Shown: positions 1 to 5,005, counted from the first letter of the stretch. The stretch: DNA of 64,000 bases from Escherichia coli (GCF_003018255.1 NZ_CP027440.1), one strand, 5' to 3'. Made by a program: numbers and translations. Notes: generated by a model not told the origin, from the sequence alone.

Positions 1-445
1 GGCAGAAAAATCCACATCGGAAAAACAGCTCGTTGCGGCGCTGGCGGTTCTCTCGCTCGGCGTTTTTTGTTGGCTTGGGGTGATAAAACCGATAGATACC
101 TACATTGCAGAGCATCAGTCCCACGCGCAAAAAATTAAGAAGGACATCAAATGGATGCAGGATCAAGCGAGCACCCATGGTTTACTCGGTCATCCTGCGC
201 TTACGCAGCCCATCAAAAATATCCTTCTCGAGGAAGCAAAACGTGAGAATTTGGCTATCACGCTGGAAAACGGTCCGGACAATACTCTGACAATTCATCC
301 TGTCACAGCTCCCCTCGAAAACGTCTCCCGCTGGCTCACTACGGCACAGATTACATACGGTATTGTTATTGAAGACCTTCAGTTTACTCTTGCCGGAAAC
401 GAACAGATCACCCTCAAGCATTTGTCCTTCAGGGAGCAACCATAA
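1..445 (+). CDS. gspM: Type II secretion system protein M, 5'-truncated at window edge
   Basis: Frame 2 is open from position 2 and encodes AEKSTSEKQLVAALAVLSLGVFCWLGV (one TM helix) ahead of the listed 121-aa ORF; stop TAA 443-445 overlaps the next ATG. Family assignment from memory. Confidence 0.75.
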   Translation, partial: AEKSTSEKQLVAALAVLSLGVFCWLGVIKPIDTYIAEHQSHAQKIKKDIKWMQDQASTHGLLGHPALTQPIKNILLEEAKRENLAITLENGPDNTLTIHPVTAPLENVSRWLTTAQITYGIVIEDLQFTLAGNEQITLKHLSFREQP

Positions 446-1122
446 TGACAATGCTACTGCCGCTCTTCATTCTGGTTGGTTTTATTGCAGGTTATTTTGT
501 TAATGCCATGGCCTATCACCTCTCGCCGTTGGAGGATAAAACGGCGTTAACGTTTCGCCAGGTATTGGTTCATTTCAGGCAAAAAAAATATGCCTGGCAT
601 GATACAGTGCCCCTGATACTTTGCGTTGCTGCTGCTATCGCCTGCGCCCTGGCACCTTTCACGCCCATCGTGACTGGCGCACTCTTTCTCTATTTCTGTT
701 TCGCACTCACGCTCAGTGTTATTGATTTTCGCACTCAGCTCCTGCCCGACAAACTCACCTTACCGCTGCTCTGGCTTGGCTTGGTATTTAATGCGCAGTC
801 TGGATTAATTGATTTACATGATGCGGTTTATGGCGCGGTAGCTGGCTATGGGGTGCTGTGGTGTGTTTACTGGGGCGTCTGGTTAGTTTGTCACAAAGAG
901 GGATTGGGCTACGGTGATTTCAAGCTACTGGCCGCTGCAGGCGCGTGGTGTGGCTGGCAAACGTTGCCAATGATACTGCTAATTGCCTCACTGGGTGGCA
1001 TTGGTTACGCCATCGTTTCACAACTTCTGCAACGCCGGACTATAACCACTATCGCATTCGGCCCGTGGCTTGCGCTCGGCAGCATGATAAACCTGGGGTA
1101 TCTGGCCTGGATCTCGTATTAA
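445..1122 (+). CDS. gspO: Prepilin leader peptidase / N-methyltransferase (A24 family)
   Basis: 225-aa polytopic membrane protein with GYGDFKLLAAAGAW motif typical of prepilin peptidases; start overlaps gspM stop. Confidence 0.88.
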   Translation: MTMLLPLFILVGFIAGYFVNAMAYHLSPLEDKTALTFRQVLVHFRQKKYAWHDTVPLILCVAAAIACALAPFTPIVTGALFLYFCFALTLSVIDFRTQLLPDKLTLPLLWLGLVFNAQSGLIDLHDAVYGAVAGYGVLWCVYWGVWLVCHKEGLGYGDFKLLAAAGAWCGWQTLPMILLIASLGGIGYAIVSQLLQRRTITTIAFGPWLALGSMINLGYLAWISY

Positions 1123-1124
1123 CC

Positions 1125-1893: not shown

Positions 1894-2061
1894 AGAGACT
1901 CCCGTATACTTTCTTCAAAAATAAATGAAAATAGTTCTTATTTCAATTACGGAAAGACTCTTTTTTAAGCAAAGAATAGAAATATGAATAAAAATAATGG
2001 GCTACCAAAAGTAGCCCATTGACAAAAAATGCGGCGATACCGGAAGGTATCGCCAACACAT

Positions 2062-4764
2062 TTATTGCTTAGTAAACGGCGCGAAGATTTCGCTAAATGC
2101 GTACTTCGGTGCCTGTTCTTTAGTCAGGCCGTGGAATTCCGGAGACAGGTTAGTGCCGCCTGGCAGGTCGCGCGCGATTGACCAGATACCAACCATACCG
2201 AGATTACGCTTCTGCGCATCCTGCATGACCAGACGAGCATCAGAGAGATAGAACACCTCGCCCTGAACGTCGTTCACGCCAACCATCGGCGTGGTACCCA
2301 TCATAGCGTCAATTTCTGCATCGCTCTTATTGGGATGGAGGCCTTTCAATTGTGAATGCAGGTTGGCAATCGCAGACGTTGCACACTTACCGTGAATGTT
2401 CTGGCCTTCGGTATTTGCAGACTGACAAATCGCGTTACCGTAGTCCATTGTCATCACGTTCACACCCGCCAGCTCAACACCTTTCGCTTTGGCATCGCTC
2501 AGGACATTCATCCCTTCCGGCGTCAGGCCAGTCGGCAGAATTGGCAAGGTGTACCAGATAGCAATATCTTTGCCCTCTGACTTCCATTTATCCTGCACTT
2601 TCTTCACAGCAAGGTTACGACGTTCAATAGATGCCTGATCCGCAACCCAGGTGCCTTCGATATCGAAGTCCAGGACTCTGAGGTTCAGGTTATCAACGAT
2701 GTCATAATAATGCTGCATCAGATCGTCTACGTTCTTACAGGAAGCAGCCAGCGGAGCGTTGTTAGCACCACCGATAGACAGCATCACATCGCCGCCAGCT
2801 TCACGCAGAGCTTTGATTTTGCTGTACTGAGCGTAATTCTGCATACCGTAAGCGGTACCCCATGTCGGCAGACAGGTGTTCGCATCTTTACTCACCACAA
2901 ACGCCAGCGTGAAGTGGTTGACGTTATGATTCTTAGCCAGCGCAGCCAGATCCGGGATCGTATTCAGCGTAAAGTCAACATACGGTGCATAAACGTGTTT
3001 CGGCCACGCTTTCTTCGGCGTACCTACACGTTCTTTGGTTCCGGTCCAGTCAACAAAAACACGCCACGGGTTGCTGTCAGAAGGAGAAACTTTCTGCACT
3101 TTACTCTGAGAAATGTAGTTCGCACCGTTAAAGCGAATCAGCGTATCGCTGGCATAAAGCGTTTCTGGATTAAACTGCGGCGCATTATTCAGCTCTTCGT
3201 TGCTATAGCTCTGAGCCTTACCTAACGGCTTCCACGGGCGGCTATTGCTACCGGTGGCGTTTTGGTTCGCAACCAGAGCAGGGTTGTCGCTTTGCGTCCA
3301 GAACAGCGCTTCATAAGCCTGCCCATCAACAACAACGCGATCACCTTTCACGTACACGGTGGAAGCGGACCATGCTTTCGCCGGTTCGTATTTCTTCCAC
3401 GGGTTATCGCCGCCCGGGACAAAGCCCCATGCGTCTTGATCGACAGAGGTTTTATAATGTGCATCGTTATAATCTACGATGCTGTTCGCGCTGTACGCTT
3501 TGCTGGCCTGGAAACCATCCGCAACAATGACGCCGCCATTATCAATTTCACAGGTAGTTGGGTTACCGTACTGACTCATTTCCGCAGCGGTAGCTGTACG
3601 CACGAGACGCCATGGGTTATTGGAGTTTTCTGCACTAGTGCCACGTGGGCAATCTTCAGAACCAACCCACCAGGCATTCTGATAAACATTACCATTGAAG
3701 ATAACATGGTAAATTTCGCTACCTTCCTGGCCACTCCACGCCTGCAGTGAGTAATCGTTACTGCTATCCGCTGGTGTTGATGGCTCGTTATTATCCGGAG
3801 TAGGAGTAACTGGAGTTACCGGTGTTTCCGGAGTTGGATCAACCGGAGTCACAGCACCGCTATTATTATCCGGCTTAACGGAACAGGAACCCGGATTACC
3901 ATACTGGCTGATTTCTGTTGCCGTTGCCGCGCGAACATAACGCCATGGGTTGCTGGCATCGTTTTCTTTCGCATCGCCTGGGCAATTTGCCGCGCCTACC
4001 CACCAGGCGTTCTTATAAATGCCGCCGTTGTAGATAACGTACCATGTAGAAGAACCTTCCTGACCTTTCCAGGCTACGACAGCATAGTTGTCGTTTGACT
4101 TATCAGCTGGAGCTGGCTGAACATCAGGAGCCGGTTTAACGTCCGGTGCCGGTTTCACATCCGGCGCAGGCTGTGGTGCTGAAGTACAGGACTGTGGATT
4201 ACTGGTTTCTGAGATTTCCGTTGCCGTAGCGGCACGAACATAACGCCATGGGTTGCTGGCATCATTGCCTTTCGCATCACCCGGGCAGTTAGAAGAGGCT
4301 ACCCACCAGGCATTTTTATATACCGCACCATTAAAGACGACATACCAGGTCTGACCGCCCTGCTGTTTATTCCAGGCAACTACAGAAGAATTAGACGGAA
4401 CAGTGCCCTGTGCTGGTGTAGCCGAACCGCCATTAGCCGGCGTATTGGATGCAGGCGTATTTGAATTTGAAGAAGATGAGCTGCCGCTCTTTTCGCAGGA
4501 AAGTGTATTGCCAAACTGACTAATTTCAGCAGCTGTCGCGGTACGCTTTAAACGCCATGGGTTAGTTGCATCATTTGCTTTTGCTTTTCCCGGGCAATTT
4601 GTAGAAGAAACCCACCAGGCATTTTCATAAATTTTGCCATCGAAAATAACCTGATATTTATTACCACCTTGTTGGTTATTCCATACTTCCATTGCCAATG
4701 CTGGCAGAGCGGAACACACCAGCCCCATACCAATCATAGATTTAGTAAATATATTTAATTTCAT
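2062..4764 (-). CDS. chiA: Periplasmic/secreted endochitinase, multidomain
   Basis: 900-aa ORF with signal peptide (…ALPALA), four N-terminal W..YxNAWW..NCPG..NPWR repeats, PAPDVK linker, two chitin-binding-type-3-like segments (AKAWSASTVYVKGDRVVVDGQAYEALFWTQSDNP) and C-terminal catalytic domain with LDFDIEG motif. SD aaggga upstream of ATG. Confidence 0.93.
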   Translation of the reverse strand: MKLNIFTKSMIGMGLVCSALPALAMEVWNNQQGGNKYQVIFDGKIYENAWWVSSTNCPGKAKANDATNPWRLKRTATAAEISQFGNTLSCEKSGSSSSSNSNTPASNTPANGGSATPAQGTVPSNSSVVAWNKQQGGQTWYVVFNGAVYKNAWWVASSNCPGDAKGNDASNPWRYVRAATATEISETSNPQSCTSAPQPAPDVKPAPDVKPAPDVQPAPADKSNDNYAVVAWKGQEGSSTWYVIYNGGIYKNAWWVGAANCPGDAKENDASNPWRYVRAATATEISQYGNPGSCSVKPDNNSGAVTPVDPTPETPVTPVTPTPDNNEPSTPADSSNDYSLQAWSGQEGSEIYHVIFNGNVYQNAWWVGSEDCPRGTSAENSNNPWRLVRTATAAEMSQYGNPTTCEIDNGGVIVADGFQASKAYSANSIVDYNDAHYKTSVDQDAWGFVPGGDNPWKKYEPAKAWSASTVYVKGDRVVVDGQAYEALFWTQSDNPALVANQNATGSNSRPWKPLGKAQSYSNEELNNAPQFNPETLYASDTLIRFNGANYISQSKVQKVSPSDSNPWRVFVDWTGTKERVGTPKKAWPKHVYAPYVDFTLNTIPDLAALAKNHNVNHFTLAFVVSKDANTCLPTWGTAYGMQNYAQYSKIKALREAGGDVMLSIGGANNAPLAASCKNVDDLMQHYYDIVDNLNLRVLDFDIEGTWVADQASIERRNLAVKKVQDKWKSEGKDIAIWYTLPILPTGLTPEGMNVLSDAKAKGVELAGVNVMTMDYGNAICQSANTEGQNIHGKCATSAIANLHSQLKGLHPNKSDAEIDAMMGTTPMVGVNDVQGEVFYLSDARLVMQDAQKRNLGMVGIWSIARDLPGGTNLSPEFHGLTKEQAPKYAFSEIFAPFTKQ
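3550..4689 (-). repeat. Four tandem ~65-70-aa carbohydrate-binding-like module repeats inside chiA, plus PAPDVK linker repeat (4105-4176)
   Basis: Protein-level repeats at residues ~26-90, 127-193, 226-294, 338-405; DNA at 4105-4176 reverse-complements to ccggatgtgaaaccggcaccggacgttaaaccggc (PAPDVKPAPDVKPAP). Confidence 0.8.
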
Positions 4765-5005
4765 TATAATCCCTTGTGACGTAAAAACTGCAAAACAAAA
4801 GTCCTACGCAGGAATTATTTACGTTTTACGAGAACCCTTCAATATGAATTAAATTACGGCATTAAAAATAAGAAAAAAGCCTGACAAAAGAAGCATTTTA
4901 AAAACAGAAACATTCATATTTAAGATATTAAATTTAATTTATATTTTAAATATGAATAATTTATTCGTTCTGACAGTACGAATAAGATATGCAGTCAACA
5001 AATGC
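4765..5005. promoter_or_regulatory. AT-rich chiA upstream region (candidate nucleoid-protein-silenced promoter)
   Basis: Long A/T runs (taaatttaatttatattttaaatatgaataatttattcg) seen in sequence; H-NS control of chiA is from established knowledge. Confidence 0.5.

Follow-up and report, generated by a model that had tools for sequence, protein, structure and literature searches.

How are a secretion machine and its cargo, encoded side by side, kept under common control? This question is raised by one end of a 64,000-nucleotide stretch of Escherichia coli DNA (NZ_CP027440.1), here called the window, where the gene of a secreted chitinase, chiA, lies between tufA and the last genes of a gsp operon for a type II secretion system (T2SS). 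We read positions 1-5005 as the distal end of the T2SS-alpha (gspC-O) operon, the iron-storage genes bfd and bfr and the cargo gene chiA, the system being very probably silenced by H-NS. We put the probability of this reading at roughly 0.9. The T2SS-alpha/ChiA/H-NS paradigm is already known from E. coli K-12; what we describe is another strain, with allelic differences only.

Gene content and the region upstream of chiA

Over its first 6.4 kb, the window shows 100% identity to E. coli DETEC-S792 (NZ_CP116067.1), and we used the RefSeq annotation of that record. Annotation and Pfam agreed on gspM, gspO, bfr, bfd, chiA and tufA, the same genes that had been called from the sequence in the original prediction (Table 1). 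The 5' 17 nt of gspM precede the start of the window. Further upstream, NZ_CP116067.1 carries gspB and gspA in divergent orientation, with gspAB adjoining rpsJ, and complete gspC, D, E, F, G, H, I, J, K, L, M and O. Since gspC-L precede them in this annotated identical record, gspM and gspO are the last genes of the operon, as had been proposed. The full set of gspC-M and gspO with divergent gspAB is that of T2SS-alpha, according to the annotation and, for the two genes inside the window, Pfam.

The region upstream of chiA had been described as far more rich in adenine and thymine (AT) than tufA. A sliding-window analysis of base composition showed that composition is not uniform and that this claim was correct. 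The content of guanine and cytosine (GC) is 26.6% in 4765-5005 and 28.9% in the whole chiA/tufA spacer (4765-5055), compared with 53.2% in tufA, 50.1% in chiA and a mean of 52.2% in coding sequences. Intergenic DNA is the proper control, and therefore the comparison with tufA, a coding sequence, was the weaker one. Averaged with weighting by length, the window's 36 intergenic regions have 41.7% GC. The lowest-GC segments of the 64 kb all fall in the chiA/tufA spacer, at the scales of 100 bp (15%, starts 4861-4863), 200 bp (23.5%) and 241 bp (23.2%), and the spacer is an extreme outlier even among intergenic DNA. The sole spacer that is marginally lower as a whole is argD/pabA (25092-25176, 85 bp, 28.2% GC); cysG/yhfL (34113-34363) follows with 31.1% GC.

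The AT-rich tract extends approximately 200 nt into the chiA coding sequence, the first two 100-nt blocks of which have 39% and 36% GC, and on the other side it stops at the tufA terminator (5005-5032). A/T runs of at least 4 nt occur 42 times per kb in 4765-5003, compared with 9.4 per kb window-wide (4.4-fold). The divergent control region between gspA and gspC (179 bp, outside the window) has 23.5% GC, while the gsp genes have 43-55% GC. One AT-rich island belongs to the machine and another to the cargo.

On the strand of chiA, a blind consensus scan picked out a single promoter-like site (4842-4814, TTGAAG-17-AATAAT), which matches the consensus at 9 of 12 positions. Its -10 hexamer ends 7 nt before the transcription start site (TSS) at G4807. 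We placed this start by means of an offset of 1978 bp between versions of the NC_000913 record, which we take to be correct; in NC_000913.3 the ATG of chiA is at 3469853 and the end of tufA at 3470145. The start had been mapped previously at NC_000913 position 3467918 and was re-confirmed by 5' rapid amplification of cDNA ends (PMC3950696). We accepted the promoter hit because it coincides with this published start. Both promoter and start lie inside the AT-rich tract, an overlap that is expected of an H-NS-silenced promoter.

We aligned the chiA/tufA spacer with that of K-12. The alignment was gapless, with 8 of 291 nt substituted, all of them distal to the promoter, and from approximately -90 to the ATG, core promoter included, the two sequences were identical. 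Since the spacer is colinear and the core promoter identical, results obtained in K-12 should transfer to the window strain. The tufA terminator separates chiA from the str operon, which is co-directional and highly transcribed. A scan of the full window against Rfam at gathering thresholds gave no match, so the spacer holds no known RNA element. Small open reading frames in 4765-5055 were set aside, as there were only unsupported frames of 22-37 aa, one of which is an out-of-frame overlap of the end of tufA.

Evidence for silencing by H-NS

H-NS represses the chiA promoter in K-12, as stated in PMC3950696 (citing Francetic et al. 2000 Mol Microbiol). According to the same source, the level of chiA mRNA in a ∆hns stpA strain, measured by quantitative reverse transcription PCR, equals that reached with activation by BglJ-RcsB, and the effects of H-NS and BglJ were also seen with promoter-lacZ fusions of the chiA spacer alone, with no upstream operon (PMC3950696). 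BglJ-RcsB activates chiA, but a box for this activator could not be defined at the gene (PMC3950696); activation at chiA may therefore be indirect anti-silencing. As for the machine, gspC-O is described as cryptic, H-NS-repressed and exporting ChiA in PMC5797941, PMC10329019, PMC3032704 and PMC3707838 (citing Francetic 2000 EMBO J). SlyA activates gspC-O (PMC5797941). That ChiA is a gsp substrate and that H-NS represses the system, both contained in the original prediction, match these published experiments on the K-12 ortholog (PMC3950696, PMC5797941).

We propose the following mechanism. The sigma-70 promoter of chiA is embedded in a spacer of approximately 240 bp with 26% GC, rich in A/T tracts and located after the tufA terminator. 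H-NS, together with StpA, would coat this spacer and occlude the promoter, and the gspA/gspC island would be silenced by H-NS in parallel; both steps were shown in K-12 and are extended to the window strain by sequence identity. If both islands are silenced alike, machine and cargo would be co-repressed and could therefore be co-derepressed. By the same extension from K-12, anti-silencers would lift this repression, with BglJ-RcsB acting on chiA and SlyA on gspC. T2SS substrates are exported by Sec, fold in the periplasm and are extruded through the secretin by pseudopilins that a prepilin peptidase has matured. Pre-ChiA, with a signal peptide of 24 aa, would thus pass the inner membrane via Sec, fold in the periplasm and leave through the GspD secretin, pushed by a pseudopilus with GspO-processed subunits. 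The tufA terminator and the H-NS-bound spacer may also shield chiA from read-through of the str operon.

Several observations weigh against silencing by H-NS. The H-NS motif TCGATAAATT had 0 matches at up to 2 mismatches in 4765-5003, compared with a mean of 0.87 in composition-matched shuffles of the same segment. A high-affinity motif is not obligatory for H-NS binding; its absence therefore lowers the support that comes from sequence only and does not affect the published K-12 result. We rejected the density of A/T tracts as a discriminator, because it is similar in other AT-rich spacers (nirD/nirC, ppiA/tsgA), and a silenced promoter therefore cannot be told from an ordinary AT-rich one by sequence alone. 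In the consensus scan, 4 promoter-like sites were found in the scanned region where 6.0 were expected from shuffles, so the counts were not above expectation. The silencing mechanism in the window strain would be transferred wholly from K-12, and chiA-dependent phenotypes in wild isolates indicate that silencing is not absolute. The spacer itself thus suggests H-NS silencing and does not diagnose it. The proposed link between AT-richness and silencing is supported, with a qualification: the extreme AT tract is present at the promoter, but composition alone is not diagnostic.

As a separate observation, the cysG/yhfL spacer has near-perfect TCGATAAATT-like sites on either side (34081 and 34366).

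Alternative explanations

The locus had also been predicted to be cryptic. This agrees with K-12 under laboratory conditions, but in natural isolates the locus may instead encode a conditionally expressed colonisation factor: ChiA would bind host CHI3L1 or mucin, and H-NS would be a tunable gate and not a permanent silencer. Current work on Crohn's-associated and mastitis E. coli considers ChiA in such a colonising role. Deletion of chiA lowers adhesion or colonisation in the adherent-invasive E. coli (AIEC) strain LF82 (PMC11486038) and in mastitis isolates, and gsp and chiA are more common in mastitis isolates than in commensal bovine isolates (PMC11390585). Since loss of chiA thus has consequences in wild AIEC and mastitis isolates, the locus is expressed in some settings, and the word cryptic is best taken to mean silent in K-12 in the laboratory. 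ChiA of the window strain carries non-K-12 residues at four of the five positions of the AIEC "pathogenic" polymorphism (Q362, E370, V388, A548; residue 378, A, is unchanged). The block is intact, without frameshifts, in approximately 3100 genomes, which argues for purifying selection. On the other hand, the core promoter and the proximal upstream DNA are those of K-12, where chiA is silent in the laboratory. We give this explanation slightly less than an even chance; it refines H-NS silencing rather than excluding it.

The AT-rich spacer could also serve mainly as an insulator which, with the tufA terminator, blocks read-through from the str operon by an H-NS roadblock or by Rho termination and does not act on the initiation of chiA. 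Reading runs in one direction, on the minus strand, for tufA, chiA, bfd and bfr alike, the strong terminator stands at the very start of the spacer, and in the compact haplotype and the outgroups described below bfd comes directly after the same terminator. However, a discrete chiA start site has been mapped, and the response to H-NS and BglJ persists when the spacer is fused to lacZ on its own (PMC3950696). Insulation is moreover a role that we infer. We consider it improbable as the main function of the spacer.

That the spacer has the ordinary composition of promoter and terminator regions, and that chiA merely has a weak promoter or lacks an activator, is very hard to maintain: argD/pabA and cysG/yhfL have similar GC, A/T-run density is comparable elsewhere, the spacer has no H-NS consensus motif and the promoter is an incomplete match, but the minima at three scales lie here, K-12 hns/stpA mutants derepress chiA to the activator level (PMC3950696), and the equally AT-rich gspA/gspC region is likewise reported as H-NS-repressed (PMC5797941).

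A dimorphic block between rpsJ and tufA

We compared the locus among 5,426 complete E. coli genomes, of which 5,425 match some part of the query. The arrangement of the window and K-12, a 16.6-kb allele with gspAB, gspC-O, bfr, bfd and chiA, is called REF; ALT is a compact allele of approximately 1.5 kb. We found chiA in 3,105 genomes, gspC-L in 3,118 and the joint gspL-to-chiA segment in 3,098, and the REF block is carried by approximately 57% of the genomes (about 3100), with ALT in the remainder. Since the counts are nearly equal, the gsp machine and its chiA cargo appear to be present or absent together, a linkage read from counts across genomes and not from a per-genome table. Such co-occurrence would support a functional coupling of the two. 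In approximately 2,254 genomes, only the bfr-bfd part of the gspL-to-chiA query matches, at about 78% nucleotide identity.

The ALT haplotype was examined in one genome, NZ_AP022287.1 (locus L005, 7469-9000). There, the junctions enclose 1,532 bp with a 155-aa A24 peptidase, bfr and bfd, compared with 16,647 bp in the window strain, which extend over L001 2357-14000 (outside the window) and window 1-5003. The flanks of the two strains are 99.4-100% identical up to sharp junctions. Between REF and ALT, bfr has 79% nucleotide and 89.7% amino acid identity and bfd has 76.9% and 87.5%, respectively; the ALT peptidase is 41% identical to GspO. Most differences fall at third codon positions (68 of 100 in bfr, 33 of 45 in bfd), which suggests an old divergence under purifying selection and not the scar of a deletion.

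The block is like an island in that some genomes have it and others lack it, and in that its junctions with the conserved flanks are sharp. Its composition is not strongly atypical (48.8% GC in the block, 51.8% in the window), and no integrase, transposase or tRNA target is annotated in the block. Since mobility genes were not found, any exchange would need homologous recombination through the flanks.

Two side observations concern this block. Within bfr, codons 8-36 (window 1521-1606) differ between the haplotypes at 3 of 87 nt, while 43% of third positions differ across bfr; a 32-nt piece of this stretch, with three third positions free, recurs in Yersinia, Shewanella, Alteromonas, Nitrosomonas and Methyloglobulus. 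Conservation at the nucleotide level here exceeds what the protein needs, and one idea is RyhB or some other constraint at the RNA level. Further, the block has decayed secondarily in some strains. The BL21-derived C41(DE3) lacks part of chiA, the remainder of which bears the annotation "carbohydrate-binding protein" (89% coverage), and in several isolates insertions of IS2, ISEc52, ISEcp1 and IS100 lie inside the region that matches the gsp operon.

Outgroups and the depth of the split

Outgroups were obtained from one DNA-pattern scan of species-representative genomes, anchored on the 32-nt bfr stretch that is identical in both haplotypes. The scan recovered many distant genera but no Escherichia or Salmonella, and no donor of the REF block was identified in it. 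As far as contigs reach, the compact layout tufA-bfd-bfr-(peptidase)-rpsJ is present in Citrobacter sp. MGH106, C. gillenii, an unclassified Enterobacteriaceae, Pantoea septica, four Yersinia and one Photorhabdus, and neither chiA nor the gsp operon was found in any of these loci. The Citrobacter peptidase is a Peptidase_A24 protein of 155 aa, the same length as in ALT.

In a neighbour-joining tree of Bfd and Bfr proteins, built without bootstrap and with few outgroups, ALT grouped with Citrobacter, and REF was on a long branch outside this pair. At the DNA level, bfr-bfd of REF and ALT are 79.5% identical, and each lies closer to Citrobacter (81-83% and 86%) than to the other. At third codon positions, both E. 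coli alleles share approximately 65% identity with Citrobacter. Because these values are equal, synonymous sites do not polarise the REF/ALT event.

On our reading of these comparisons, the haplotypes may have split at least as deeply as Escherichia and Citrobacter, with the compact layout being what vertical descent would give, and the gsp-chiA block with its own bfr-bfd would behave as a unit exchanged through the conserved flanks. Could the genomes without gsp and chiA have arisen by simple deletion from a K-12-like arrangement? The E. coli W genome paper reports a "gspO-rpsJ deletion" and, for gsp, absence in all B1 strains (PMC3032704), and a short A24 peptidase gene persists beside bfr in ALT, but a recent deletion appears refuted by the divergence of bfr and bfd, the low identity of the peptidase to GspO and its Citrobacter-like length, the compact layout of Citrobacter, Pantoea, Yersinia and Photorhabdus, the place of REF outside ALT and Citrobacter in the tree, and the near-identical flanks right up to the junctions, so that we hold this explanation to be extremely doubtful. 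The description as a "gspO-rpsJ deletion" does not fit the bfr-bfd divergence.

We tentatively suggest that the block is one of two genus-deep alleles of the whole spacer from the S10-operon promoter to the tufA terminator, and not ancestral E. coli DNA since deleted in some lineages. It would pass between lineages as a unit by homologous recombination via the ultra-conserved flanks that encode ribosomal proteins and EF-Tu, and H-NS, bound to its two AT-rich promoter islands, would act here as a xenogeneic silencer of an imported cassette of machine and cargo. We would not quite bet on this proposal. If it is true, the cassette also exchanges the bacterioferritin genes of the cell for a version diverged by 12%. 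The haplotype structure is a modest addition which we did not find stated in the literature searched, and it needs a proper phylogenetic test before any claim.

One locus was set aside as an outgroup. It is a 17-kb contig (L009, DXKH01000010.1) of a metagenome-assembled genome labelled "Citrobacter sp." (HRGM_Genome_0066), with GspL, GspM, GspO, Bfr, Bfd, ChiA and TufA at 95-100% protein identity to the window. It is probably a mis-binned E. coli contig; a recent transfer of the block into Citrobacter is the alternative.

The dimorphism also bears on association studies. A genome-wide association study (GWAS) of mastitis treats bfr and bfd as accessory genes, with exactly the frequencies of gsp and chiA (PMC11390585). 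They would appear as hits because they belong to a single dimorphic haplotype with alleles as deep as between genera, which pan-genome tools likely split. Associations of chiA are confounded with the alternative bacterioferritin allele and the entire T2SS.

The ChiA protein of the window strain

ChiA has the features of a secreted chitinase. A Sec signal peptide occupies aa 1-24 (MKLNIFTKSMIGMGLVCSALPALA, before M); it contains 2 basic residues and a hydrophobic core and ends in ALA. A carbohydrate-binding module, CBM_5_12, was located by Pfam at aa 464-497. The GH18 domain lies at aa 612-808 (Pfam Glyco_hydro_18, 41 bits against a cutoff of 29.6) and carries the DxDxE acid/base motif of GH18 chitinases as DFDIE at aa 699; the full DxxDxDxE form is not present in this domain.

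The N-terminal part (aa ~25-406) contains four modules of approximately 65 aa (NAWW...CPG...NPWR). We located them by motif, as the internal repeats were not listed in a blastp self-comparison of ChiA. These modules matched no Pfam family at E <= 0.01; in the literature they are labelled chitin-binding domains. The modules (aa 25-431, window 3400-4692) are spaced by Ser/Pro-rich linkers, including a PAPDVK x3 repeat. Compared with K-12, three residues (TPV) are inserted at 314-316 and 13 are substituted, the four at AIEC-diagnostic positions included.

Features of the locus

The coordinates of all features are collected in Table 1. The hairpins and the promoter-like site between chiA and bfd are candidates by pattern.

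Table 1. Features of the gsp-chiA locus; positions refer to the window unless stated otherwise.
Feature	Position	Strand	Basis and remarks
gspM (T2SS-alpha inner-membrane platform protein)	<1..445	+	RefSeq annotation; Pfam T2SSM, E 2.1e-33
gspO (prepilin peptidase, final gspC-O gene)	445..1122	+	RefSeq annotation; Pfam Peptidase_A24, E 2.4e-30
bfr (bacterioferritin), REF-haplotype allele	1151..1627	-	annotation; Pfam Ferritin
bfd (bacterioferritin-associated ferredoxin), REF-haplotype allele	1699..1893	-	annotation; Pfam Fer2_BFD
chiA-bfd spacer	1894..2061	-	33% GC; two terminator-like hairpins and promoter-like bfd site
Candidate bfd promoter-like site, TTGAAA-17-TATTTT	1946-1918	-	pattern match, not proof of function
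Candidate terminator-like hairpins 3' of chiA	2055-2032 and 2020-1996	-	-18.8 and -16.2 kcal/mol; pattern matches only
chiA (secreted endochitinase/lysozyme, 900 aa)	2062..4764	-	annotation; Pfam GH18 and CBM_5_12
AT-rich silencing region, presumed H-NS nucleation/spreading platform that covers the chiA promoter and the DNA upstream of it	4765..5003		25.9% GC; repression from K-12 literature
chiA 5' untranslated region	4765..4807	-	K-12 TSS maps to G4807, 43 nt upstream of ATG
chiA core promoter	4814..4842	-	-35 TTGAAG, 17-nt spacer, -10 AATAAT; blind consensus scan
Right junction of 16.6-kb block	5003..5004		from 5004 on shared at 99.4% with gsp/chiA-less E. coli; below, haplotype-specific
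Left junction of 16.6-kb block	L001 2356, just upstream of rpsJ, outside window		alignment
tufA (str operon) intrinsic terminator	5005..5032	-	12-bp stem, TTCG loop, T-run; -19.0 kcal/mol
tufA (conserved flank, outside the system)	5056..6240	-	annotation

Elsewhere in the window (35736-37403), the annotation of this strain lists yhfT and yhfU as pseudogenes with frameshifts. The window also contains a second secretin-type operon, hofMNOPQ (DNA uptake/utilisation, 49166-52453), which is conventionally held to be cryptic.

Comparison with known systems

The closest relative is the T2SS-alpha/ChiA (YheB) system of K-12, which was reportedly characterised by Francetic and Pugsley in 1996 and by Francetic et al. 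in 2000 (EMBO J, Mol Microbiol). The original prediction was sound in re-deriving from raw sequence a system characterised in 1996-2000, and it contains nothing new. Gene order, orientation, promoter and regulatory spacer are the same in both strains, and the gspL-to-chiA segment is 98.2% identical. The differences are allelic only: ChiA has 900 aa instead of 897, and Bfr differs at the last residue.

In its regulation the locus resembles bgl, leuO, casA and the cryptic fimbrial operons, which share an AT-rich control region, silence in the laboratory, derepression in hns/stpA mutants and activation by anti-silencers (BglJ-RcsB, LeuO, SlyA). Unlike in bgl, leuO and casA, two AT islands control machine and cargo here, and they are parted by the unrelated housekeeping genes bfd-bfr.

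The compact layout of ALT and Citrobacter has the same flanks, the same bfd-bfr orientation and an A24 peptidase in the position of gspO, but gspAB, gspC-M and chiA are missing from it. The spacer that follows the tufA terminator has 39.6% GC in this layout, compared with 26-29% in the window, and its bfr-bfd genes stand at inter-genus divergence from the window copies.

As in the Klebsiella Pul secreton with pullulanase, the T2SS is encoded beside or near a glycoside-hydrolase cargo, and the secretin is of the Klebsiella type (PMC10329019). The T2SS-secreted ChiA proteins of Vibrio cholerae and Legionella are similar in that chitinases serve as T2SS substrates with roles on host glycans or mucin. 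These systems are inducible under known conditions (maltose, chitin), whereas T2SS-alpha of E. coli is silent in standard conditions and has one known substrate.

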